Source: Enterobacter phage vB_ExiM_F4M1E. Taken from it: a DNA stretch of 64,000 bases. This document shows, piece after piece, positions 54,412 through 64,000 of the stretch. Made by a program: the position numbers and the translations under genes. Where the stretch lies: the sequence record OL744216.1; one strand, given 5' to 3'. Each line of letters starts with the position of its first letter. Position 1 is the first letter of the stretch. Under the pieces are notes generated by a model. It saw only the letters and a program-made list of their open reading frames with translations, searched no databases and was not told the origin of the DNA.

Positions 54412-55302
54412 ATGATTCGTGCGTATCTTGGCGGAAGCCAACTGGATGTCGAATTTGGAACATTCGCCGGGGGTGAGCGTAGCGTCCGCATCAACGGTTA
54501 TATGCTGACAAGCCCATTCAACCCGGACCTGAAAGAGAACATTCCTGAAGGTAAAGACCTGGTGGTTTATGCTCACGTTGATAGTTCAGATGCCATCATG
54601 GATCTGCTTCTGTTTACAGATGCATTCAACCGCTTGGGCCGTGGTACGGGCCACCTGGTTAAAAAGGTGTGCTGCCTTCCGTACATTCCGTATGCCCGAC
54701 AAGACCGGGTAATGGTCCCTGGCGAACCACTGTCTGCCGAGGTGTTTGGCAGAATCATCGGTCTGTGCGCCTTTGACCGTATCATTGTGGATGACCCACA
54801 CTCGGATGTGTCTCCTTCACACATCAAAAACGTCTCCATCTTCGAACAATATGAACTGGCGTTGGATATTCTCGGCCCAGGGTTCTTTGATGATGCCGTT
54901 ATCGTAGCACCGGATGCTGGGGCGATTAAGAAGGTTATCAAACTGGCGAAGAAGGTTAATCACCGACATATCGGTGTGGGCACTAAGCATCGTGATCTTG
55001 TGACCAACAATATCACGGATACAACTTACGCAGGGCCGGATGTTAATGGTAAGCGTGTCATCATGGTGGATGACATCTGCGATGGTGGTCGAACCTTTAT
55101 CGAACTCGGGAAGGTGCTCCGTGCCAATGGTGCCAAAGAAGTGATTCTGTACACCACCCACGGCATTTACTCCTACGGCGCGGATGTGTTCCGTGATGTT
55201 ATCGACGAAGTTTATTCCGCTTACCCTTGGATGAAGAACCTCGAAGGCCGAAACGAAAATAATATTTTCAAATCGGTTGACAAGATGGTCGAGTTCAAGT
55301 AA
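54412..55302 (+). CDS. ribose-phosphate pyrophosphokinase (PRPP synthetase)-like protein; candidate ADP-ribose pyrophosphokinase
   Basis: Prs architecture: PYIPYARQDR, VAPDAGA, VIMVDDICDGGRTF PRPP-binding loop. Confidence 0.7.
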   Translation: MIRAYLGGSQLDVEFGTFAGGERSVRINGYMLTSPFNPDLKENIPEGKDLVVYAHVDSSDAIMDLLLFTDAFNRLGRGTGHLVKKVCCLPYIPYARQDRVMVPGEPLSAEVFGRIIGLCAFDRIIVDDPHSDVSPSHIKNVSIFEQYELALDILGPGFFDDAVIVAPDAGAIKKVIKLAKKVNHRHIGVGTKHRDLVTNNITDTTYAGPDVNGKRVIMVDDICDGGRTFIELGKVLRANGAKEVILYTTHGIYSYGADVFRDVIDEVYSAYPWMKNLEGRNENNIFKSVDKMVEFK

Positions 55303-55353
55303 TATTCACAACGTTCCGGGGCAATGTGCCCCGATTTCACTGAGGAGATTTAT

Positions 55354-57144
55354 ATGTTACATAATGACCTGCCTATTCTGTTTGCTGACTGGTACAAGCC
55401 GAGCCACATTTCCATGTACAGCAAAAAGTCTGAGATCGTACAGGACAACCTGACACCACGCTCAAGCAAACACTTCCAGCACTTCTCTGACAGTGACCAG
55501 CGTGTTATGTCTGCGGGTCTGCAAGGCTTTATTAAGTGGTTCCTGATTGAACACTTCAACCGCGAGTTCTTCGGTCGCCCGAAAGAAGAAGTTATCGGCG
55601 AGTTCAAAGAAATCTGTGACTTGGCGATCGGCCCGGACATGGTTGAAACGTGGGGCTTCGAAAAGCTGCATGACTTGGGCTATCTGCCTGTTGAAATCCG
55701 CGCCCTGCCGGAAGGTACACTTTCTCCGGTACAAGTGCCGCTGTTCACCATTCAGAACACGCACCCGGACTTCTACTGGCTTCCTAACTATCTGGAGTCA
55801 GTGATCTCCTCCGAAAACTGGAAAACCGTGACTACGGCAACCATTTTCTGGCAGTACCGTAAGCTGGCTGAACTGTGGGCGCAGAAAACCTGCGACAACA
55901 ACCTGCACGTCCCGTTCCAGATCCACTGCTTTGCTTATCGTGGTCAGGCTGGTACTCACGATGCGGCACAGTCTGAACTGGGTCAACTGATGAACTCTCA
56001 GGGCACCGACACCATCCCGGCGATCCTGTATGCAAACCGTTATTACGGTATGAAGGGTAAGTTCGTATCCGGCTCCATCCCGGCATCCGAGCACAGCGTT
56101 GCAACAACGAACATCGGCTTCATCATCGGACGCCTCCGTTCTGAGCATCCGGAAATGTCGCTGGATGACCTGCGTTTCCACGCAGAGGTCGAGTTCCTGC
56201 GTCGTTACATCACTGAAATCTTCCCGAAAGGTTTCGTGTCATACGTCGGCGACAGCTACGACTGGTTCCGTCTGATTACAGAGGGTGTTCGCATCCTGAA
56301 AGACGAAATCATGGCCCGTGACGGTCGTGTAGTATTCCGTCCGGACTCCGGCGTACCGGAAGACATCATCTGCGGAACACTCGACTGGCGCAAGATCGAG
56401 GATTTGGATGAAGCTGGCTCTCTGGAACGTGCTGCCGAGTGGGCACTGGAAAGCGCAGAAGAGGAAGTTCGCCAGGACACCCCGCACGGTGAATGTGGCG
56501 ATGAGACTGTTGAACGTTACTTCCTGTTCGATGGTGACCTGTACCTGATGAAGGGTGAGCTTGACTGGAACCGTTATGACAAGCAGTATTACTACATCGA
56601 CGGTAGTCGTGTCCTGTCTTACGAAAAAGCGGAACTGACCAACGAGCAGAAAGGCTCTGTTGAACTGCTGTACGATGTGTTTGGTGGTGACCTGAACTCC
56701 AAAGGCTATCGCACTCTGGATACCCACGTTGGCCTGATTTACGGTGACTCCATCACCGTGGCCCGTGCCAAAGAGATCTTCGAGCGCCTGGAAGCAAAAG
56801 GTTTTGCATCGAACAACGTTGTGTTCGGGGTTGGTTCCTTCACCACCCAGTTCAACACCCGCGATTCTCTGGGTCAGGCCGTGAAGGCTACTGGTGCGGT
56901 TATCGACGGTCAGCAGATCATGGTCGTCAAAGAGCCGAAGACCGACCTCGGTAAGAAGTCTGCACAGGGCTTCCTGAAGGTTGTTCGTGGCGAGGATGGC
57001 GAACTGAAGCTGGTCGATAACCTGCAACTTGAACAGGTTAACGACGCTGACAACGAACTTCGTGTTGTGTTCCGTGATGGCAAGCTGTTGGTTGACGAAA
57101 CGCTGACTGAACTTCGTGAGCGTGTCACAGCAAACCTGAAGTAA
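55354..57144 (+). CDS. nicotinamide phosphoribosyltransferase (Nampt)-family protein, 596 aa
   Basis: NAPRTase/Nampt-family fold; gaggag RBS before ATG 55354; track ORF 55324. Confidence 0.7.
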   Translation: MLHNDLPILFADWYKPSHISMYSKKSEIVQDNLTPRSSKHFQHFSDSDQRVMSAGLQGFIKWFLIEHFNREFFGRPKEEVIGEFKEICDLAIGPDMVETWGFEKLHDLGYLPVEIRALPEGTLSPVQVPLFTIQNTHPDFYWLPNYLESVISSENWKTVTTATIFWQYRKLAELWAQKTCDNNLHVPFQIHCFAYRGQAGTHDAAQSELGQLMNSQGTDTIPAILYANRYYGMKGKFVSGSIPASEHSVATTNIGFIIGRLRSEHPEMSLDDLRFHAEVEFLRRYITEIFPKGFVSYVGDSYDWFRLITEGVRILKDEIMARDGRVVFRPDSGVPEDIICGTLDWRKIEDLDEAGSLERAAEWALESAEEEVRQDTPHGECGDETVERYFLFDGDLYLMKGELDWNRYDKQYYYIDGSRVLSYEKAELTNEQKGSVELLYDVFGGDLNSKGYRTLDTHVGLIYGDSITVARAKEIFERLEAKGFASNNVVFGVGSFTTQFNTRDSLGQAVKATGAVIDGQQIMVVKEPKTDLGKKSAQGFLKVVRGEDGELKLVDNLQLEQVNDADNELRVVFRDGKLLVDETLTELRERVTANLK

Positions 57145-57150
57145 TTTCAG

Positions 57151-57170
57151 CCGCCCTTCGGGGCGGTTTT
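57151..57170 (+). terminator. rho-independent terminator
   Basis: ccgcccttcggggcgg then tttt. Confidence 0.7.
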
Positions 57171-57189
57171 CCCTCATCTGGAGAACAAA

Positions 57190-57381
57190 ATGAGAAACCT
57201 CGTTGCAAAGAACGACCATAACCGTGCAGCAACCCACCTGGATCGCTCTAAGGAGCCTTTACTCACCGTAGACGAGGGTTTGCTTGACTACTACGCAGAA
57301 CACGCTGAGAACGTCGCACAGAGCGAATATGCACGTGCCTCTGTAAATGCCCCTGGGTCACCCCTCCCACCCCGACGTTGA
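57190..57381 (+). CDS. hypothetical protein (63 aa)
   Basis: ggaga RBS. Confidence 0.45.
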   Translation: MRNLVAKNDHNRAATHLDRSKEPLLTVDEGLLDYYAEHAENVAQSEYARASVNAPGSPLPPRR

Positions 57382-57440
57382 CTATCGTTAAGTCCTCCAG
57401 TAAAATGACCATATCACTTGATTAACTTACTGTTGGACTT

Positions 57441-57692
57441 ATGACTCCCTATAAACTTACTCTCAGCTTTGTCACCCCCGATTACACTTCCGAAGAACAC
57501 TCTGAGCACTACCCCACACTTCAAGATGCCATCGACGATGCAGATGATTTAGCTTTCAGCACCGTCGGCTTTCCTCTTGAACATTGGCAAAGTGTTGACT
57601 TCGGTGACGGTAACCGTTTATACTCGTTTTACCCGAATGAGGTTGATAAGACCTCTCGTTATAAACTGGCGATTTTGAAGGAGGAGATTTGA
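57441..57692 (+). CDS. hypothetical acidic protein (83 aa)
   Basis: ORF. Confidence 0.45.
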   Translation: MTPYKLTLSFVTPDYTSEEHSEHYPTLQDAIDDADDLAFSTVGFPLEHWQSVDFGDGNRLYSFYPNEVDKTSRYKLAILKEEI

Positions 57693-57916
57693 GAAAGTTT
57701 CAGTACGTACTCACCGTGGACTTAGATGATGACTATCTGTCCCGAAAGGAAACCTTGGATGAACTTAAAAAAGTGCCAGGTATTGACATCAACAACCCTA
57801 TCTACTCTTTAGCCGCTGACAAGTTCCCGGATGCCATAGTTGAAACACTTAGCCGCGGTATTGGCGACTCCGGTGAAACAAAAATCAGTGTCACCTTCGA
57901 AAGAGAGGTTAAATGA
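57689..57916 (+). CDS. hypothetical protein (75 aa)
   Basis: ATGA-coupled. Confidence 0.45.
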   Translation: MRKFQYVLTVDLDDDYLSRKETLDELKKVPGIDINNPIYSLAADKFPDAIVETLSRGIGDSGETKISVTFEREVK

Positions 57917-58140
57917 AACAAGTCATCGAGGTAAAAATCACGGCGACGTTTGATTACGACAATCCAGAGCTTCTGGAACTGCTGAAGGCCAAGATGGTTG
58001 ACACGGGCATGACTGCCGATCAGATCCGCGCCCAAGCCAAGTCAGAAATCTTCGCTGGGTTCAAAGAACTCATTGATGATGACATGCGGGGAGAGAAACT
58101 TCCCGGCTTTACTTACACAGTGGAGGATATTTCAGTATGA
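57913..58140 (+). CDS. hypothetical protein (75 aa)
   Basis: ATGA-coupled. Confidence 0.45.
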   Translation: MKQVIEVKITATFDYDNPELLELLKAKMVDTGMTADQIRAQAKSEIFAGFKELIDDDMRGEKLPGFTYTVEDISV

Positions 58141-58226
58141 ACAGCACAGAATTGGTGATTGGTTACGGAGAAGGTATCCGTGACGAAGAAGATTTTGAGT
58201 TCTTTGAACAAAATTGGGGAGTCTGA
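58137..58226 (+). CDS. acidic micro-ORF (29 aa)
   Basis: MNSTELVIGYGEGIRDEEDFEFFEQNWGV; ATGA-coupled; paralog of the next micro-ORF. Confidence 0.3.
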   Translation: MNSTELVIGYGEGIRDEEDFEFFEQNWGV

Positions 58227-58227
58227 C

Positions 58228-58311
58228 ATGAAAGACGAGTTCGATTTTTTGACTGGATGGGGTGAAGGTATTGAATCTGGGTGTATCGAAGATGAGCGCC
58301 CGGACCTTTAA
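58228..58311 (+). CDS. acidic micro-ORF (27 aa)
   Basis: MKDEFDFLTGWGEGIESGCIEDERPDL; shares the G(Y/W)GEGI motif. Confidence 0.3.
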   Translation: MKDEFDFLTGWGEGIESGCIEDERPDL

Positions 58312-58462
58312 CCATCTGCCGGGGGCGGATGACCCCCGGAACCACGAATACAAGGGATACATCTGCCTTTGTTTTGTGTGCGGAAACAAATATCTTGGTC
58401 CAAAACGCTCGGTTATGTGCAATCTTTGTGCAAACGGTAAAAAGCCTGTTGACAAAGAGTAG
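58292..58462 (+). CDS. small C4 zinc-finger protein (~56 aa)
   Basis: CLCFVCGNK...CNLCANG; start at the internal Met of track ORF 58262..58462. Confidence 0.4.
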   Translation: MSARTFNHLPGADDPRNHEYKGYICLCFVCGNKYLGPKRSVMCNLCANGKKPVDKE

Positions 58463-58764
58463 GGCTACAGGTAATCTGAATATGTCCCGAACGAGATGAC
58501 AATCAAGTAGGTGGATGGATAAGTCAACCCGGTCTGTTAAACGACCAAAGTGCCATTGCGGTTCGGGTTGAGTTCAGCCGGATAAACAGCGGCTCCATCG
58601 ACGGCCTCTGGAATAGCGACGGTTGCTTCAGGTCTCACGACCACCCGTTACGTGAAACACGCTTTTGCTGGACGAGAAGGGGAAGTCAACCCCACGGGCA
58701 TACGTCCTCTGCCCATTTCTCCCTCCCCCGGAGCGTAACAACTACCGGACTTGCTGGGAGATTT

Positions 58765-58840
58765 GCTGGATTAGCTCAGTAGGTAGAGCGCCTCACTTGT
58801 AATGAGGATGTCGCGGGTTCGATTCCTGCATCCAGCACCA
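58765..58840 (+). tRNA. tRNA-Thr (anticodon TGT)
   Basis: hand-folded cloverleaf: acceptor gctggat/atccagc, D arm gctcagtaggtagagc, anticodon loop cttgtaa, T loop ttcgatt, encoded CCA. Confidence 0.8.
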
Positions 58841-58846
58841 GATCAT

Positions 58847-58923
58847 GCAACGTTGCCGGAGTCTGGTAACGGCTCTCGCTGCAAACGAGATGATCACTGG
58901 TTCGAATCCAGTACGTTGCTCCA
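58847..58923 (+). tRNA. tRNA-Cys (anticodon GCA)
   Basis: acceptor gcaacgt/acgttgc, anticodon loop ctgcaaa, T loop ttcgaat, CCA. Confidence 0.75.
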
Positions 58924-58924
58924 A

Positions 58925-59001
58925 GCGCCTTTAGTCCAATTGGTAGAGGCACTACATTCAAAATGTAGGGGTTCCCAGTTCGAATCTGGGAAGGCGCACC
59001 A
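58925..59001 (+). tRNA. class-I tRNA with anticodon CAA (Leu-decoding by anticodon; isotype uncertain)
   Basis: acceptor gcgcctt/aaggcgc, anticodon stem ctaca/tgtag, loop ttcaaaa, 5-nt variable loop, A73, CCA. Confidence 0.6.
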
Positions 59002-59010
59002 AATTATCAT

Positions 59011-59046
59011 GTAACCTATTGACATAGTGTAATTATGCTGTTAAGA
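59011..59046 (+). promoter_or_regulatory. candidate promoter for the embedded AT-hook gene
   Basis: ttgaca, 17 nt, taagat. Confidence 0.35.
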
Positions 59047-59073
59047 TGAATACACTAACTCAATGGGGGCATT

Positions 59074-59448
59074 ATGAGCAAGGCTGCGATTGTAACTCGT
59101 AAGCGTGGTCGCCCAAGCAAAGAAGAGAGCACAGCAATTGCCCTTGAAAAGGCAATGCTTGATCTCCGAGGCGAATTGGCCCGTCTGACGCCGAAGGCCA
59201 TTACTACTCTCGAAAACCTGCTCACAACGGGTACAGAGAAGGTGAAGGAAACCACGGCGAAGTATATCCTTGAGCAGGCGAAAGAGGTTAACAACCTCTA
59301 CACTGAAGAGGATAACGAAGACGACGCAGCAGGCGGCACAACATCTGCCTCTTCTGAAACTCACGCTGGTTCTTCTGACGAGATGAAAAATGCCATCCCG
59401 TTGACTACCCAGATTCGTGAGTATAAAGTAGTAGGCGAAGATGATTAA
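59074..59448 (+). CDS. AT-hook-containing acidic protein (124 aa)
   Basis: RKRGRPSK AT-hook near the N-terminus; acidic C-terminus; embedded within the tRNA array. Confidence 0.55.
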   Translation: MSKAAIVTRKRGRPSKEESTAIALEKAMLDLRGELARLTPKAITTLENLLTTGTEKVKETTAKYILEQAKEVNNLYTEEDNEDDAAGGTTSASSETHAGSSDEMKNAIPLTTQIREYKVVGEDD

Positions 59449-59454
59449 TTGGAA

Positions 59455-59476
59455 GGCTCCCGAAGGAGCCTTTATT
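59455..59476 (+). terminator. rho-independent terminator
   Basis: ggctcc-cgaa-ggagcc then tttatt. Confidence 0.65.
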
Positions 59477-59613
59477 AGAAGTTCTCTTTTGACGGGCACT
59501 TGTTAACGACCCGCAGCATGGCGTCGGTGTACAACGGAGTTTGATGGCGAGGAAGGTCTATAGGGATCAGCGCAGATCCTTGGATATCAGGTGAGCCGTA
59601 CAAAAGAGAATTT

Positions 59614-59701
59614 GGGGAGTTATTTCCGTAGAGGTAGCGGTGCAGACTGTAAATCTGTTGTCATTGCGACTCGGGTGGTTCGACTCCATCACTCCCCACC
59701 A
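59614..59701 (+). tRNA. tRNA-Tyr (anticodon GTA), class II
   Basis: acceptor ggggagt/actcccc, anticodon loop ctgtaaa, long variable arm, T loop ttcgact, CCA. Confidence 0.75.
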
Positions 59702-59707
59702 AATTTT

Positions 59708-59802
59708 AGTAGGATGGCTGAGTGGCTTAAAGCAGCATCTTGGAAAGGTGTCGGTCGCAGTGACCCTGCGGCCCGGGAGTTCAAATCTCCCTCCTACTGC
59801 CA
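59708..59802 (+). tRNA. tRNA-Ser (anticodon GGA), class II
   Basis: acceptor agtagga/tcctact, 3-bp D stem with long D loop, anticodon loop ttggaaa, long variable arm, G73, CCA. Confidence 0.7.
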
Positions 59803-59806
59803 GATC

Positions 59807-59884
59807 GGATCGTTAGCTCAATTGGTTAGCAGCAAGGCACTTTTAATGCCGAGGTTCGGGGTTCGAGTCCCTGACGGTCCACCA
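59807..59884 (+). tRNA. tRNA-Lys (anticodon TTT)
   Basis: acceptor ggatcgt/acggtcc, anticodon loop cttttaa, T loop ttcgagt, CCA. Confidence 0.7.
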
Positions 59885-60044
59885 GAAAGAAGAGGGTCCA
59901 AGCTGGTACTGAGTGCTAAAGCATACTCTAAGCCCAGATGGAGGCCACCCTGAAGTCGTCCAACTGAAGGTCCCTGATTGAGTAATACTTCCCCGCCTGT
60001 CGGGTACAGTTCTCAGTCACACCGGACGGGGCGCACCCAATTAT
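59885..60044 (+). ncRNA. 160-nt non-tRNA spacer inside the array; possible structured RNA
   Basis: no cloverleaf or TTCGA T-loop found by hand; GC-rich internal complementarity (ccccgcctgtcgggt...accggacggggcg). Confidence 0.2.
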
Positions 60045-60120
60045 TGGTCTTTCGTATAATCGGTTATTACGGCGGACTGTTAATCCGTTTATCCGGGTTC
60101 GAGTCCCGGAGGACCAGCCA
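60045..60120 (+). tRNA. tRNA-Asn (anticodon GTT)
   Basis: acceptor tggtctt/aggacca (T1:A72), anticodon stem gcgga/tccgt, loop ctgttaa, T loop ttcgagt, G73, CCA. Confidence 0.65.
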
Positions 60121-60158
60121 ATACTTAATCAATAGTCATTTCGATGGCTATTCGTTAA

Positions 60159-60236
60159 GTCCTGGTAGACAAACTTGGTAAAGTCACCACCCTTTCACGG
60201 TGGGGTTTGAGGGTTCGATCCCCTCTCAGGACGCCA
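60159..60236 (+). tRNA. tRNA-Glu (anticodon TTC)
   Basis: acceptor gtcctgg/tcaggac, anticodon stem ccacc/ggtgg, loop ctttcac, T loop ttcgatc, CCA. Confidence 0.7.
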
Positions 60237-60325
60237 ATCTTTTAGGTCGGTAGATTAATGGAGTTGTGGAACTCCACCGGGTTCCAACCCCGGCTCCGGG
60301 GGTTCGACTCCTCACCTTCCTGCCA
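60237..60325 (+). ncRNA. aberrant tRNA-like element ending in CCA (possible Trp-CCA or Pro-TGG loop; fold ambiguous)
   Basis: T arm gggg-ttcgact-cctc and 3' CCA are present, plus two 5-bp hairpins with 7-nt loops (ggagt-tgtggaa-actcc; ccggg-ttccaac-cccgg); acceptor pairing is poor (5/7) and the 5' half is 7 nt too long. Confidence 0.35.
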
Positions 60326-60327
60326 TC

Positions 60328-60434
60328 TTTGAGGTGTTACAGTTAAATCCTGTGTCGGAAGTGCGAATCGCGCGATAGCTGCCAATTGACAACGGGTAAG
60401 GCTGTACAGGACTCGGACTCCCATCTCAAAACCA
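60328..60434 (+). ncRNA. 107-nt CCA-terminated tRNA-like/ncRNA element
   Basis: ends tttgagg...tctcaaa pair 7/7 and are followed by A-CCA; no canonical T loop inside; hairpin tacag-ttaaatc-ctgtg. Confidence 0.3.
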
Positions 60435-60440
60435 AATTCA

Positions 60441-60516
60441 GGTCCTATGGTATCAGCGGTAAACATACTCGCCTGTCACGCGAGAGTCACGGGTTCGAAT
60501 CCCGTTAGGACCGCCA
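60441..60516 (+). tRNA. tRNA-Asp (anticodon GTC)
   Basis: acceptor ggtccta/taggacc, anticodon stem ctcgc/gcgag, loop ctgtcac, T loop ttcgaat, G73, CCA. Confidence 0.8.
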
Positions 60517-60520
60517 CTTT

Positions 60521-60596
60521 TGGGGATTAGCTCAGTTGGTAGAGCAGGCTCTTGATAAGGGTCAGGTCGCTGGTTCGAGTCCAGCATCCCCAACCA
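60521..60596 (+). tRNA. tRNA-Ile (anticodon GAT)
   Basis: acceptor tggggat/atcccca (T1:A72), D arm agctcagttggtagagc, loop ttgataa, T loop ttcgagt, CCA. Confidence 0.8.
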
Positions 60597-60599
60597 ACA

Positions 60600-60676
60600 C
60601 GGTGTGTAGCTCAGTCTGGTAGAGCGATTGCTTTGGGAGCATTAGGTCCGAGGTTCGAGTCCTCGTACACCGACCA
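60600..60676 (+). tRNA. tRNA-Pro (anticodon TGG)
   Basis: acceptor cggtgtg/tacaccg, D arm gctcagtctggtagagc, loop tttggga, T loop ttcgagt, CCA. Confidence 0.75.
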
Positions 60677-60682
60677 ACTTAT

Positions 60683-60757
60683 TGCGAGGTAGTTCAGCGG
60701 TAGAACAGGGGTCTCATACGCCTCATGTCGGCAGTTCGATTCTGCCCTTCGCAACCA
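60683..60757 (+). tRNA. tRNA-Met (anticodon CAT; elongator, initiator or Ile-lysidine type not resolved)
   Basis: acceptor tgcgagg/cttcgca (T1:A72), loop ctcatac, T loop ttcgatt, CCA. Confidence 0.75.
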
Positions 60758-60762
60758 GCTTT

Positions 60763-60840
60763 GCTCCAGTAGCCCAATTGGCAGAGGCACTTGATTTAGG
60801 TTCAAGTCAGTGATGAGTTCGAATCTCTCCTGGAGTACCA
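60763..60840 (+). tRNA. class-I tRNA with anticodon TAG (Leu-decoding by anticodon; isotype uncertain)
   Basis: acceptor gctccag/ctggagt, anticodon stem cttga/tcaag, loop tttaggt, short variable region, weak 3-bp T stem, A73, CCA. Confidence 0.55.
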
Positions 60841-60847
60841 CATTAAA

Positions 60848-60924
60848 GCATCCATAGTGTCAGTGGTCTAACACTCCGTCCTTCCAAGTCGGAACCCTCG
60901 GTTCGAATCCGAGTGGATGCTCCA
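60848..60924 (+). tRNA. tRNA-Gly (anticodon TCC)
   Basis: acceptor gcatcca/tggatgc, loop cttccaa, T loop ttcgaat, U73, CCA. Confidence 0.75.
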
Positions 60925-60964
60925 ATTTAATTGCCCGTGGTGATCGGGTTATCTCACCCAGTGT

Positions 60965-61040
60965 AGGGGATTAGTTTAATTGGCAAAACAGCGGGTTTTG
61001 ATCCCGCTAACGCGAGGTTCGAATCCTCCATCCCCCGCCA
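60965..61040 (+). tRNA. tRNA-Gln (anticodon TTG)
   Basis: acceptor aggggat/atccccc with A1-C72 mismatch, D stem gttt/aaac, anticodon stem gcggg/cccgc, loop ttttgat, G73, CCA. Confidence 0.7.
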
Positions 61041-61042
61041 AA

Positions 61043-61112
61043 CTAAAGGGTTTTCGAAATGGTAGCGCTGCCGCTCTGCAAACCCACCCGCAAAGCTGCG
61101 AGAACCCTTTAG
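61043..61112 (+). ncRNA. 70-nt hairpin element closed by a perfect 10-bp inverted repeat
   Basis: ctaaagggtt at 61043-61052 and aaccctttag at 61103-61112 enclose ~50 nt with sub-hairpins (ctgcaaa loop; cgca-aagc-tgcg). Confidence 0.35.
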
Positions 61113-61113
61113 T

Positions 61114-61189
61114 GTGGCCTTAATTCAGCAGGTAGAATCCCCGGTTGTGAACCGGGCAGTCGTGGGTTCAAGTCCCACAGGTCACCCCA
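61114..61189 (+). tRNA. tRNA-His (anticodon GTG)
   Basis: acceptor gtggcct/aggtcac, anticodon stem cccgg/ccggg, loop ttgtgaa, T loop ttcaagt, C73, CCA; no encoded G-1. Confidence 0.75.
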
Positions 61190-61194
61190 ACAAT

Positions 61195-61287
61195 GGAAGA
61201 TAGGGCGTAGTGGTACGCACCCGGATTTGAACCCCGGCCCGCTGTGGCGACCCCACGGTGATAGTTCGACTCTATTATCTTCCGCCA
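61195..61287 (+). tRNA. tRNA-Ser (anticodon TGA), class II
   Basis: acceptor ggaagat/atcttcc, 3-bp D stem, loop tttgaac, 22-nt variable arm, T loop ttcgact, G73, CCA. Confidence 0.7.
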
Positions 61288-61291
61288 ATTT

Positions 61292-61379
61292 AGAAGAGTG
61301 GCGAAATCGGTAGCCGCACCGGACCGCTAATCCGGGGTCCCCTCGGGGCCTGAGAGTTCAAGTCTCTCCTCTTCTGCCA
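61292..61379 (+). tRNA. tRNA-Ser (anticodon GCT), class II
   Basis: acceptor agaagag/ctcttct, anticodon stem ccgga/tccgg, loop ccgctaa (C at position 33), long variable arm, T loop ttcaagt, G73, CCA. Confidence 0.65.
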
Positions 61380-61384
61380 AACAT

Positions 61385-61460
61385 GGAACTGTAGCTCAGT
61401 TGGTAGAGCGGTTGCCTGAAGAGCAGCGCGTCAGCGGTTCAAATCCGTTCAGTTCCACCA
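61385..61460 (+). tRNA. tRNA-Phe (anticodon GAA)
   Basis: acceptor ggaactg/cagttcc, D arm agctcagttggtagagc, loop ctgaaga, T loop ttcaaat, A73, CCA. Confidence 0.85.
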
Positions 61461-61502
61461 AATTCCAATAAGAATAAAATATCTCCTCTCCTTCGCCTCA
61501 GT

Positions 61503-61530
61503 GCCCTCCCTTTGCGGAGGGCTTTTTTAT
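61503..61530 (+). terminator. rho-independent terminator after the tRNA array
   Basis: gccctccc-tttgc-ggagggc then tttttt. Confidence 0.75.
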
Positions 61531-61570
61531 TTGTGCTTTCGGTGATAAAATACCCGAAAGGAGGATTCGA

Positions 61571-62395
61571 ATGCTTGAGCTTATGGTTTGTACTAATCAA
61601 CCACAAAAACCACCACCAAGTGGTCAACTTTTTGTAAGTTCTGACCAAGACTACATATGGACCGTCCCTGACAGGGTGTTTAAAATCTCGATCGTCTGTG
61701 TTGGTGGGGGACAGCCATCTGCCAATATGGCAACCTCCGGAAAGTACGGTGGGGATCTTAGATGGACTAACAATGTCCCTGTTTCTCCCGGGGAGACATT
61801 GATTATCCGGACTACTTCCTCCACCCCGGCTTCCGAGACGGCAGGCAGAAGTTCTGCCGTATACCGAGGTTCTGCATCTGAAGAGAACCTCATCCTTCGG
61901 GCAGGTGGAGGAGGAAACTCCACTTATCCTTCTACCCTTCTCGGGGGCGGAGTAGGAGGAGGTAACGGAGGTGCTCCTTCGGGAAGGTCAGGAGGAGGGG
62001 CAGGCGGTTATTTGGGCAACGGAGGAGCCGGGGGCGGGAATCCTGCAACATCCGGCTCAGGCGGAGGAGGAGGAGGGGCACCATACACCTTCCAAGGGTA
62101 TAGTTTCGGAGGAGCCGGGGGCGGGGTTGGTGTTCACGGAAAAGGATCAGACGGGGCAGGCGGCACCTCTTCCGGAGGGGATACTGCGGGTGGGTCATAC
62201 GGGTCATATATCCAAGGGTCACCTGTATCCCAAGCCCCCACAAGAACCTCTGCCACCAAGCCAGGTAGATTTGGAGGAGGAGCCGGGTCAACCAATAGAG
62301 ACTTGGCGGCAATTCCGGGGTCCCCCGGTGCAGTAAGGATAGTCTGGGGGGAGGGTAGAGAGTTCCCTGATGCAGATAATGTTAAGGATGTGTAA
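61571..62395 (+). CDS. glycine-rich protein, paralog 1 (274 aa)
   Basis: aaggagg SD; conserved N-terminal module (MLEL...DYIWTVPDRVFKISIVCVGGGQPS), central GGxGG low-complexity region, conserved C-terminus GAVRIVWGEGREFP. Confidence 0.65.
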   Translation: MLELMVCTNQPQKPPPSGQLFVSSDQDYIWTVPDRVFKISIVCVGGGQPSANMATSGKYGGDLRWTNNVPVSPGETLIIRTTSSTPASETAGRSSAVYRGSASEENLILRAGGGGNSTYPSTLLGGGVGGGNGGAPSGRSGGGAGGYLGNGGAGGGNPATSGSGGGGGGAPYTFQGYSFGGAGGGVGVHGKGSDGAGGTSSGGDTAGGSYGSYIQGSPVSQAPTRTSATKPGRFGGGAGSTNRDLAAIPGSPGAVRIVWGEGREFPDADNVKDV

Positions 62396-63217
62396 ATGCT
62401 TGAACTTTTAGCAATGACTGGAAAAAAGTACGATCCTGACCCGACAGATGTTCAAGGTCAGGTTTTCTTCACTGCTACTACAGGAACTGACTGGACTGTC
62501 CCGGCTGGCGTCTACGCTATATCTGCTGTATGTATTGGGGGTGGTCAGCCGTCCGGATCAGGAAACATAAACGGTAGGGATGGCGGAGATCTGCGATGGA
62601 AAAACAAAATTCCAGTAACTCCGGGAGAGGTGCTGAGAATAAGAGCCTCTGTTGCAACAAATTATCTAACCTTTGCGGGCCAGGCATCTAACATCGTAAG
62701 AAAAGAGAGCGGAGAGGTCCTTCTTCAGGCCGGGGGCGGAGGAAACACTCAAGAATTATCAACCCCTCTCGGCGATGGTGTTGGCGGCGGAAACGGCGGG
62801 AAAGGGAACATGAGAGGCGGCGGCGGTGCAGGGGGCTATTCAGGGAACGGCGGTAACGGGTCAAGTAATGAAAAAGGGTGGCCTGGTACAGGTGGTGCCG
62901 GAGGTGGTGGTTGTTATTATGTCTACAACGGGACCACTTATGGCGGCGGCGGCGGAGGAACGGGCGTCCACGGAGAAGGGCCTAATGGAATTGGAGGTAC
63001 GGGAGGATCAGCCCCCTCTTCATCTGGAGGAGGATCAGGCAGTTGGTTCTCAACAACCCCCTCCGGACAGAAGCCTTTAAGTGCCAACGGACCTAATGGC
63101 GGCGACTTCGGAGGAGGCGCAGGAGGTTCATCCGGTTACAACGGGACCAGGGGTGCTGTCCGAATCATCTGGGGCAAAGGTCGAGAATTTCCTTCTACGG
63201 GGACTAAAGATGTCTAA
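62396..63217 (+). CDS. glycine-rich protein, paralog 2 (273 aa)
   Basis: start immediately follows the paralog-1 stop; MLEL...DWTVPAGVYAISAVCIGGGQPS ... GAVRIIWGKGREFP. Confidence 0.65.
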   Translation: MLELLAMTGKKYDPDPTDVQGQVFFTATTGTDWTVPAGVYAISAVCIGGGQPSGSGNINGRDGGDLRWKNKIPVTPGEVLRIRASVATNYLTFAGQASNIVRKESGEVLLQAGGGGNTQELSTPLGDGVGGGNGGKGNMRGGGGAGGYSGNGGNGSSNEKGWPGTGGAGGGGCYYVYNGTTYGGGGGGTGVHGEGPNGIGGTGGSAPSSSGGGSGSWFSTTPSGQKPLSANGPNGGDFGGGAGGSSGYNGTRGAVRIIWGKGREFPSTGTKDV

Positions 63218-63220
63218 TTT

Positions 63221-63583
63221 CTTCATTAAGTATAAGAGGTATCTGATCGGCATCGGGGTTGCGATCCTGTTGCTGTTCTCCTTTAACTGGTACGTAGGCA
63301 CAAAAGAGTCAGCGGCATATGACCGTGGATTCCAGTCTGCGAATATTCAGTGGGAGAAAAAGGGGAAAGAGTACGTGGACCTTATCGACAAAGGTAAGGC
63401 CGAGAACACGGCTCTTAATGCTAAACTGGCGAAAGTCTCTGAAGAAAAGCGAAAGCTGGAAGAGGCCCGCCGTCATAATGTAAACGACAAGCAGATCGAA
63501 TACAACAAGACTGAAGCCGCCCGGAAGAAAGGGTTGGATGATGATTTTGTGGATCTGTACAACGAATCCTTGGGGGACTGATG
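63221..63583 (+). CDS. membrane-anchored coiled-coil protein (start 63221 within track ORF 63081..63581)
   Basis: internal Met MSNFFIKYKRYLIGIGVAILLLFSFNWY (TM) directly after the Gly-rich gene; coiled-coil KLAKVSEEKRKLEEARR. Confidence 0.4.
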
Positions 63584-63895
63584 AGAAAATTCATTCTCGG
63601 AATGTTCATGGTTCTGGCACTGTCAGCGTGTAGCAACAAAGACAGAATCCCAGAGGTGGCCTTTAAAGGAACCACGGTAGAAGACCTTGTAGATAAGCCG
63701 GACCGAGAGTTGATGCGTAAGGCTCCACCAAAGCAGTACCTCAAGAAAGGTACAGACAACGGTGAAGGCGCAGTTGTTATAAGTAACAACAACTTGCGGG
63801 CAGGGACAGTCGAGCGCAGGCTCGAAGACCTCCAGCAATATGTCTGCAACCTCTTCAAAGACCCGGTTGGGGAAGTCTGCGAAAAGGGTAAGTGA
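63581..63895 (+). CDS. putative lipoprotein (104 aa)
   Basis: MRKFILGMFMVLALSACSNKD has a LSAC lipobox; ATGA-coupled. Confidence 0.5.
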   Translation: MRKFILGMFMVLALSACSNKDRIPEVAFKGTTVEDLVDKPDRELMRKAPPKQYLKKGTDNGEGAVVISNNNLRAGTVERRLEDLQQYVCNLFKDPVGEVCEKGK

Positions 63896-64000
63896 TTGTG
63901 CCAAAAGGCTCTCCATTCGTGGAGGGCCTTTTCTTTTGGGGCACTTTGTGATAATATACCTACTATCGACACATGTCAATTTCTTTATTCAGGAGAGTTA

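Follow-up and report, generated by a model that had tools for sequence, protein, structure and literature searches.

Do tRNAs that carry leucine anticodons on a scaffold lacking the long variable arm, reportedly a hallmark of tRNA-Leu (PMC9976931), function as leucine tRNAs? This question is raised by a 64,000-nucleotide (nt) stretch of DNA from Enterobacter phage vB_ExiM_F4M1E (sequence record OL744216.1), analysed here at its full length and hereafter called the window, which contains a tRNA array with two such genes:

58925–59001, + strand: tRNA-Leu(CAA), class I, 77 nt with encoded CCA (ARAGORN, Rfam RF00005 and a class II Leu covariance model)
60763–60840, + strand: tRNA-Leu(UAG), class I, 78 nt with encoded CCA (ARAGORN, Rfam RF00005 and the class II Leu covariance model)

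Our analyses indicate that both genes quite probably encode functional leucine tRNAs and belong to a family of class I (short variable loop) tRNA-Leu carried by phages. Each combines a leucine anticodon with a variable loop of about 5 nt, the combination by which short-loop tRNA-Leu are defined (PMC6614811); the loop is 5 nt in both, and neither ARAGORN nor Rfam found the long arm that marks class II. In tRNA-Leu(CAA), the anticodon (58959–58961) lies in the loop UUCAAAA, the D stem GUC/GGC closes the D loop CAAUUGGUAGA (58937–58947), the variable loop is GGGUU and the discriminator is A73. In tRNA-Leu(UAG), the anticodon (60797–60799, TAG) lies in the loop UUUAGGU, the D loop is CAAUUGGCAGA (60775–60785), the variable loop ends in U48, the first pair is G1.U72 and the discriminator is again A73. 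Both match Rfam RF00005 over their full length with a short variable region, scoring 57.8 bits (58925–58998) and 43.8 bits (60763–60837), respectively, where the gathering score is 29.

A sequence-only reading of this DNA had described class I elements with short variable loops, A73, encoded CCA and the anticodons CAA and TAG, and ARAGORN and Rfam bear this description out. The cloverleaf that it drew also stands, but the 7/5/5/5 stem pattern does not hold in two arms. The D arm of both genes has 3 pairs; C13 and A22 stay unpaired, and the loop comprises 11 nt. In tRNA-Leu(UAG), the T stem contains an extra nucleotide and can be drawn as GA(u)GAG/CUCUC with a bulged U or, alternatively, as 3 pairs between mismatches. 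This extra nucleotide is common to the window, Klebsiella phage vB_KaeM_KaOmega (L001, 3642–3719) and Cronobacter phage CR9 (L016, 2501–2578). In the KaOmega and CR9 copies of tRNA-Leu(UAG), the anticodon stem contains a U.U mismatch, which is absent from the window copy, and position 38 is different as well.

Single-sequence minimum-energy folding did not return the cloverleaf for either gene, nor for most of their array neighbours, and the cloverleaf energies of both genes fall inside the range of the array's tRNAs. ARAGORN, run on the tRNA arrays of nine cultured phages and the window, yielded 24 distinct tRNA-Leu genes. In the alignment of these sequences, 98.7% of base-pair cells hold standard pairs and 18 of the 20 pairs have changed on both sides; the covariation score is 0.933, versus 0.249 with shuffled partners and ≤0.17 with partners slid by 1–3 columns. 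The covariation fits the stated cloverleaf register only.

These data bear on the suspicion that the short form is an artefact of boundaries or folding that hides a long arm or a different anticodon, a reading to which we give practically no credence. Two independent tRNA finders agree on both genes, and neighbouring tRNAs flank each of them at a distance of 1–7 nt, so that there is no room for a hidden arm. The sequence-only reading had itself allowed that its anticodon stems were mis-assigned, which ARAGORN, Rfam and the covariation refute: the covariance-model folds keep both anticodons and reveal no concealed arm. Its observation that the array has no class II tRNA-Leu is not only correct but extends further, as ARAGORN and the class II Leu covariance model found no long-armed tRNA-Leu in the array or the rest of the 64-kb window.

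The identity of the two tRNAs can be assessed against what their presumed partner enzyme recognizes. The leucyl-tRNA synthetase (LeuRS) of Escherichia coli ignores the anticodon and needs A73, A15-U48, G18G19 and A20a; the long arm is not an identity element for this enzyme, and arm-less variants stay active (PMC9976931). In Streptomyces, a 5-nt variable loop that includes nucleotide 48 is the minimum for good leucylation (PMC6614811), and both window genes lie at exactly this minimum. Tested at the level of sequence, both genes carry A73, U8, A14, A15, G18G19, U48 and the U55C56 of the T loop, which G18G19 face. Across the 24-sequence alignment U8, A14, G18, G19, U48 and A73 are invariant and A15 is conserved at ≥90% (A73 of two genes from phage Bacchae was at first misread through an ARAGORN register shift), and in 45 class II tRNA-Leu these positions vary little or not at all. 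With the D-arm geometry described next, the window tRNAs carry all the sequence elements that an E. coli-type LeuRS reportedly needs, and they lack only the arm, which the E. coli enzyme can reportedly do without.

The D arm and the anticodon loop point the same way. The motif N13-AAU(Y1-2)GGYAGA combined with a 3-bp D stem is present in 6 of 6 E. coli tRNA-Leu and in 17 of the 24 short phage tRNA-Leu, both window genes among them, and is absent from all 181 other tRNAs of E. coli and phages. In the remaining seven short tRNA-Leu, of which three belong to Cali and one each to wV8, CR9, 4MG and Alone3, the D loop has diverged. The anticodon loops of tRNA-Leu(CAA) and tRNA-Leu(UAG) are exactly those of E. 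coli leuX and leuW, respectively, and A35 and U33 are invariant in the short phage alignment. The G1.U72 pair is found in 13 of the 24 short phage tRNA-Leu, 2 of the 6 E. coli tRNA-Leu and 15 of 158 phage tRNAs of other specificities. Structure-registered similarity places E. coli tRNA-Leu as the top E. coli group, by small margins, and phage tRNA-Glu, tRNA-Arg and tRNA-Gly score equally high.

For an isotype-specific comparison, which the sequence-only reading had proposed, we built a covariance model (R1) trained exclusively on the 45 long-armed tRNA-Leu, whose sources were E. coli, T4, viral contigs and GTDB genomes. Although a missing arm is penalized as a deletion, this model scored tRNA-Leu(CAA) at 56.9 bits and tRNA-Leu(UAG) at 54.3 bits, 12–14 bits above every other short tRNA of the array, the best of the other class I tRNAs reaching 42.4 bits. 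At nine other phage loci, 18 of 22 short tRNA-Leu outranked every non-Leu class I tRNA. These findings are consistent with a 2025 study of the related phage Sf14, in which tRNAscan-SE isotype models put Leu first for its three short tRNA-Leu; the paper is silent on the variable arm (PMC12482277). By blastn, the Sf14 tRNA-Leu(UAG) shares 79% identity with the window gene. The proposal that these are unusual leucine tRNAs relying on A73 and tertiary elements is thus supported by A73, U8/A14, A15/U48, G18G19, the geometry of the D arm and the model scores.

The sequence-only reading had presented the short form as a local oddity, which it is not. Searches of 50,697 phage records with both genes by blastn gave full-length, ungapped matches annotated as tRNA-Leu in many lineages, including Felix O1-like and T5-like phages, KVP40-like vibriophages, mycobacteriophages of cluster C (84% identity to the UAG gene) and phages of Streptomyces, Gordonia, Lactobacillus and Myxococcus. 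All 24 tRNA-Leu of the ten-phage set are short, with lengths of 74–80 nt and variable loops of 4–7 nt; tRNA-Leu of E. coli K-12 are all 85–87 nt. By comparison, 26 of the 27 tRNA-Ser and tRNA-Tyr in the same ten phages are long. The exception, from Streptomyces phage Alone3 (L018, 4207–4280), is 74 nt long, carries the serine anticodon GCU and A73, and has a 4-nt variable loop and a poor D arm; seryl-tRNA synthetase (SerRS) should not be expected to recognize it.

The short form is also common in uncultivated viral contigs. A search pattern drawn from the family, CCAATTGGYAGAG-N27-33-GTTCGAATC, matched at least 120 loci in IMG/VR, and among the matches listed 112 of 123 pattern-bearing tRNAs had leucine anticodons, comprising six different ones (UAG, CAA, UAA, CAG, AAG and GAG). 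We count the presence of six leucine anticodons on one scaffold among these matches as a sign of selection for decoding. An arbitrary sample of viral loci, which came from a pattern with a register error (12 N before GCCA where 10 were due) and is not a clean survey, contained 25 short and 21 long tRNA-Leu, with long arms in 41 of 44 tRNA-Ser and 14 of 14 tRNA-Tyr. The short form is common in phages but not universal, because a long-armed tRNA-Leu of the phage T4 type (87 nt) is found again in 580 phage records, most of them from T4-like and phiKZ-like phages. Overall, short tRNA-Leu are a widespread family and, in cultured phages whose hosts span three bacterial phyla, the norm for large tRNA arrays.

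If the two window genes act as leucine tRNAs, they would be co-transcribed with the other genes of the array and matured by host enzymes, and the host LeuRS, blind to the anticodon, would leucylate both. As their anticodon loops are identical to those of leuX and leuW, the same host modifications would be expected. The CAA tRNA would then decode UUG and the UAG tRNA the CUA/CUG/CUU group, and their role would be to sustain leucine decoding for phage genes, which use UUG and CUU more than our E. coli sample does. In the open reading frames (ORFs) of the window, UUG and CUU make up 18.5% and 16.7% of leucine codons, compared to 10.6% and 8.8% in the E. coli sample, while CUG makes up 40.7% versus 56.8%. 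Of the codons that the sequence-only reading had singled out for comparison, UUG is raised and CUA is rare. Codon use weakly suggests a match to the supply of UUG and the CUN box, provided that U34 is modified as in the host.

Several observations weigh against this assignment. The leucylation of the window tRNAs by an enterobacterial LeuRS is a prediction from sequence, and E. coli LeuRS, described as a type II-only enzyme, left the type I tRNA-Leu(CAA) of Streptomyces coelicolor uncharged (PMC6614811). The overall identity of the window genes to E. coli tRNA-Leu is unremarkable, and in whole-sequence comparisons with 29 E. coli tRNAs, in which class II targets are penalized by the arm gap, tRNA-Leu was the best match for 10 of the 24 short tRNA-Leu. 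tRNA-Leu(UAG) has the lowest Rfam score in the array, an irregular T stem and a single-sequence folding z-score of -0.93. Lastly, the codon comparison rests on crude ORF calls and an E. coli sample in place of the true host, and CUA, which is rare in both sets, accounts for 2.8% of phage leucine codons.

Some of these observations would sit comfortably with a different role, in which the two genes produce stable, tRNA-shaped RNAs that enterobacterial LeuRS charges barely or not at all and that serve as decoys for tRNA-directed nucleases or toxins, or are relics of the array. We regard this as quite unlikely. It draws on the failure of E. coli LeuRS to charge the only bacterial type I tRNA-Leu tested (PMC6614811), on a leucine-specific domain of that enzyme that reportedly favours a large variable region, on the imperfect T stem and low Rfam score of the UAG gene, and on the proposal that phage tRNAs act as countermeasures to tRNA-targeting defences (PMC10264068). 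However, position 48 is a different base in the tRNA that Fan et al. used, and a decoy would have no need of much that the family conserves: the whole LeuRS identity set over phages of three bacterial phyla, six leucine anticodons with an invariant A35 and U33, and anticodon loops that match those of the host isoacceptors. The compensatory changes in all four stems likewise argue for selection on a working tRNA.

A working tRNA could still be charged with an amino acid other than leucine, with UUG and CUN partly recoded, as the sequence-only reading had considered; a class I scaffold such as that of tRNA-Trp might have acquired a leucine anticodon. The D arm of the family is about one inserted nucleotide away from that of tRNA-Trp, the pattern CCAATTGGYAGAG...GTTCGAATC also matches 72 tRNA-Trp genes of cellular genomes in GTDB, whole-sequence comparison ranks E. 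coli tRNA-Trp among the best matches of some family members, and CCA to CAA is a single change. Yet the resemblance to the tRNA-Trp D arm is confined to the loop sequence, the D stem of tRNA-Trp having 4 bp, and A73 is invariant in the family where tRNA-Trp has G73. The marks of other synthetases are missing as well: position 3/70 is G3-C70 or U3-A70 in the window genes, rather than the G3:U70 read by alanyl-tRNA synthetase (AlaRS), neither gene has the long arm or G73 of SerRS substrates, and CAA and UAG fit no anticodon-reading synthetase under the known identity rules (PMC9976931). Leucine anticodons predominate among the listed viral matches, and the class II Leu model separates the window tRNAs from tRNA-Trp and all other class I tRNAs. 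Recoding is thus unsupported, and we consider it highly improbable. The reading that both genes are functional class I leucine tRNAs is the one that we carry forward.

Why a phage lineage would part with the arm is a separate matter. Possible reasons include escape from activities that recognize class II tRNAs, protection from mis-serylation and portability between hosts. Two further points, which we note as leads only, are these: T-even infection reportedly cleaves a host tRNA-Leu, and a toxin that prefers tRNA-Ser by way of its long loop is on record. The family pattern also retrieved 48 short tRNA-Leu in 46 loci of GTDB bacterial assemblies (for example L193, from a Dehalococcoidia metagenome-assembled genome, L148 and L190). 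Some of these stand in very dense arrays of 29–34 tRNAs per 8 kb, and others are solitary, notably in Actinobacteria (Nocardia, Streptomyces, Pseudonocardia and Corynebacterium).

A more far-reaching proposal, which we offer tentatively and think rather doubtful, is that a single arm-less tRNA-Leu lineage circulates in phages of Proteobacteria, Actinobacteria and Firmicutes, leaks into some bacterial chromosomes and owes its retention to the long arm being a liability in infected cells. A host defence nuclease or toxin, or an activity induced by the phage, might seize class II tRNA-Leu by this arm and remove them, and the phage copy would escape removal and take over leucine decoding. Were this proposal true, an E. 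coli-type LeuRS would charge type I tRNA-Leu in vivo, against its current description.

The two genes are set in an array whose other features are as follows:

58765–61460, + strand: tRNA array of 18 genes (ARAGORN, Rfam; syntenic arrays in KaOmega, CR8, CR3 and CR9)
59019–59047, + strand: sigma-70-like promoter match, TTGACA-17-TAAGAT with TG (consensus scan, 10/12)
59614–59701, + strand: class II tRNA-Tyr(GUA)-like gene (Rfam tRNA-Sec, 32.9 bits, sub-threshold; relaxed ARAGORN; CR9 orthology)
61503–61532, + strand: intrinsic-terminator-like hairpin with T run (terminator scan: 7-bp stem, 6 GC pairs, tail TTTTTTATTT)

The array reads Thr, Cys, Leu(CAA), Ser(GGA), Lys, Asn, Glu, Asp and Ile in its first half, and Pro, Met, Leu(UAG), Gly, Gln, His, Ser(UGA), Ser(GCU) and Phe in its second. 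It is 96% identical to that of KaOmega and 88–95% identical to those of Cronobacter phages CR8, CR3 and CR9 and Enterobacter phage ENT3, all of which belong to the genus Certrevirus, subfamily Vequintavirinae, as does the phage of the window. The records of close relatives already annotate both genes, as tRNA-Leu(caa) and tRNA-Leu(tag), and the window genes themselves are therefore not new. A blastn search of 5,426 E. coli genomes found no counterpart of either gene; 77-nt queries reach significance there only near identity, and the result means only that E. coli chromosomes and prophages contain no close copy.

All three tRNA-Ser of the array keep their long arms (88–95 nt). Because these genes and the tRNA-Tyr(GUA)-like gene keep theirs, the phage has not generally stripped its tRNAs of long arms. 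The tRNA-Tyr(GUA)-like gene has an over-long stretch separating the acceptor and D stems and is overlooked by default ARAGORN and misfolded as tRNA-Cys by relaxed ARAGORN; orthologues are annotated in CR9, CR8 and wV8. Among the serine genes, tRNA-Ser(GCU) (61292–61379, + strand, 88 nt) combines G73 and a long arm with a leucine-type D arm, GUGGCGAAAUCGGUAGCCGC, and is the top match of the class II tRNA-Leu model, at 60.7 bits in the window and 67–68 bits in KaOmega and CR9. This gene may represent a switch from leucine to serine identity. A tRNA-Trp(CCA)-like element at 60249–60321 (+ strand) is degenerate and probably represents a tRNA gene in decay, with a good anticodon arm (CCGGG-UUCCAAC-CCCGG) and a mismatched acceptor stem; it scores 30.3 bits with Rfam tRNA-Sec and is seen by relaxed ARAGORN only. 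The 160-nt gap between tRNA-Lys and tRNA-Asn (59885–60044, + strand) gave no tRNA call and no Rfam match.

The promoter-like sequence is the best such site in the region, where the count of such sites is not above shuffled expectation. Lying 3' of tRNA-Leu(CAA), it is a weak call for a possible internal start serving the downstream part of the array. Downstream of it, inside the array, is an ORF of 124 amino acids (aa; 59074–59448, + strand), a hypothetical protein kept in KaOmega (gp297) and CR9. The terminator-like hairpin begins 43 nt past the last tRNA gene (Phe) and is the probable end of the array transcript. Right after it are two adjacent paralogous ORFs (61571–62395 and 62396–63217, + strand; 274 and 273 aa) with long glycine-rich cores, which the KaOmega annotation lists as hypothetical; spanin-like genes are also found downstream of the array. 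We found no tandem repeats in window positions 55000–64000, whereas a pseudo-ToxI is annotated beside the few tRNAs of the related phage phiTE. A gene for a large 'RNA-binding'/Ro-like protein adjoins the tRNA arrays of three unrelated phages, KVP40, wV8 and Alone3; in the window region, YrlA-like Rfam matches were weak only and located at tRNA junctions.

Type I tRNA-Leu are an already known kind, from animal mitochondria and S. coelicolor. In our full-text literature searches, which covered sources other than subscription journals, we found no paper on short-armed tRNA-Leu in phages, nor the recognition that the short form prevails in large phage arrays across phyla, including those of phages whose hosts have a supposedly type II-restricted LeuRS. 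The window genes are probably ordinary in function and under-appreciated in architecture. Phage short tRNA-Leu offer natural, sequence-diverse arm-less substrates for studying LeuRS recognition and, in a way open to direct testing, conflict with the published view that E. coli LeuRS accepts type II tRNA-Leu alone. In practical terms, they should not be flagged as mis-annotated or pseudo on account of their length.

How the window tRNAs relate to known leucine tRNAs is best seen by comparison with those of other phages, of the presumed host type, and of the two systems in which type I tRNA-Leu have been described. The tRNA-Leu of KVP40, the wV8/Felix O1 group, the T5-like phage DU_PP_V, Cali, Alone3 and Bacchae, annotated as such, share the scaffold, the length of 74–80 nt and the identity elements, with 75–98% identity to the window genes. 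They differ in their sets of anticodons, and the copies in actinobacterial and Lactobacillus phages have no encoded CCA.

E. coli leuX and leuW and the T4 tRNA-Leu have in common with the window genes A73, U8/A14, A15/U48 and G18G19, the same 3-bp D stem and the 11-nt D loop N-AAUUGGUAGA, and G1.U72 is found in part of both the E. coli and the short phage sets. They differ in the T loop, which is UUCGAAU in the window genes and UUCAAGU or UUCGAGU in E. coli tRNA-Leu, and above all in the variable region, where bacterial class II tRNA-Leu have an arm of 12–15 nt and the window genes a 5-nt loop instead. The family could have arisen either from a class II tRNA-Leu that lost its arm or from a class I scaffold, such as that of tRNA-Trp, that was recruited to leucine. 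The D arms of the T4 tRNA (GGUC-AAAUUGGUAAA-GGCAC) and the window CAA gene (AGUC-CAAUUGGUAGA-GGCAC) are nearly identical, a likeness that appears to favour arm loss.

The closest bacterial precedent is the type I tRNA-Leu(CAA) of S. coelicolor, presented as a rare exception in a paper in which phages are unmentioned (PMC6614811). Like the window genes, it is a bacterial-type tRNA with a leucine anticodon and a short variable loop, and it is leucylated by its own LeuRS in a manner that depends on a particular leucine-specific domain (Fan et al. 2019, PMC6614811). It has C48, however, and its A73 is not used for recognition (PMC6614811), whereas the phage genes have U48 and A73, both invariant in the family, and occur in phages of hosts with an E. 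coli-type LeuRS. The negative result obtained with E. coli LeuRS therefore need not apply to them. Animal mitochondrial tRNA-Leu provide the second precedent: they too are class I, use A73 and A14 as identity elements and are charged without a long arm (PMC9976931). The mitochondrial tRNAs, though, have a loose structure and a LeuRS dedicated to them, whereas the phage tRNAs retain canonical D- and T-loop elements and strong stems.

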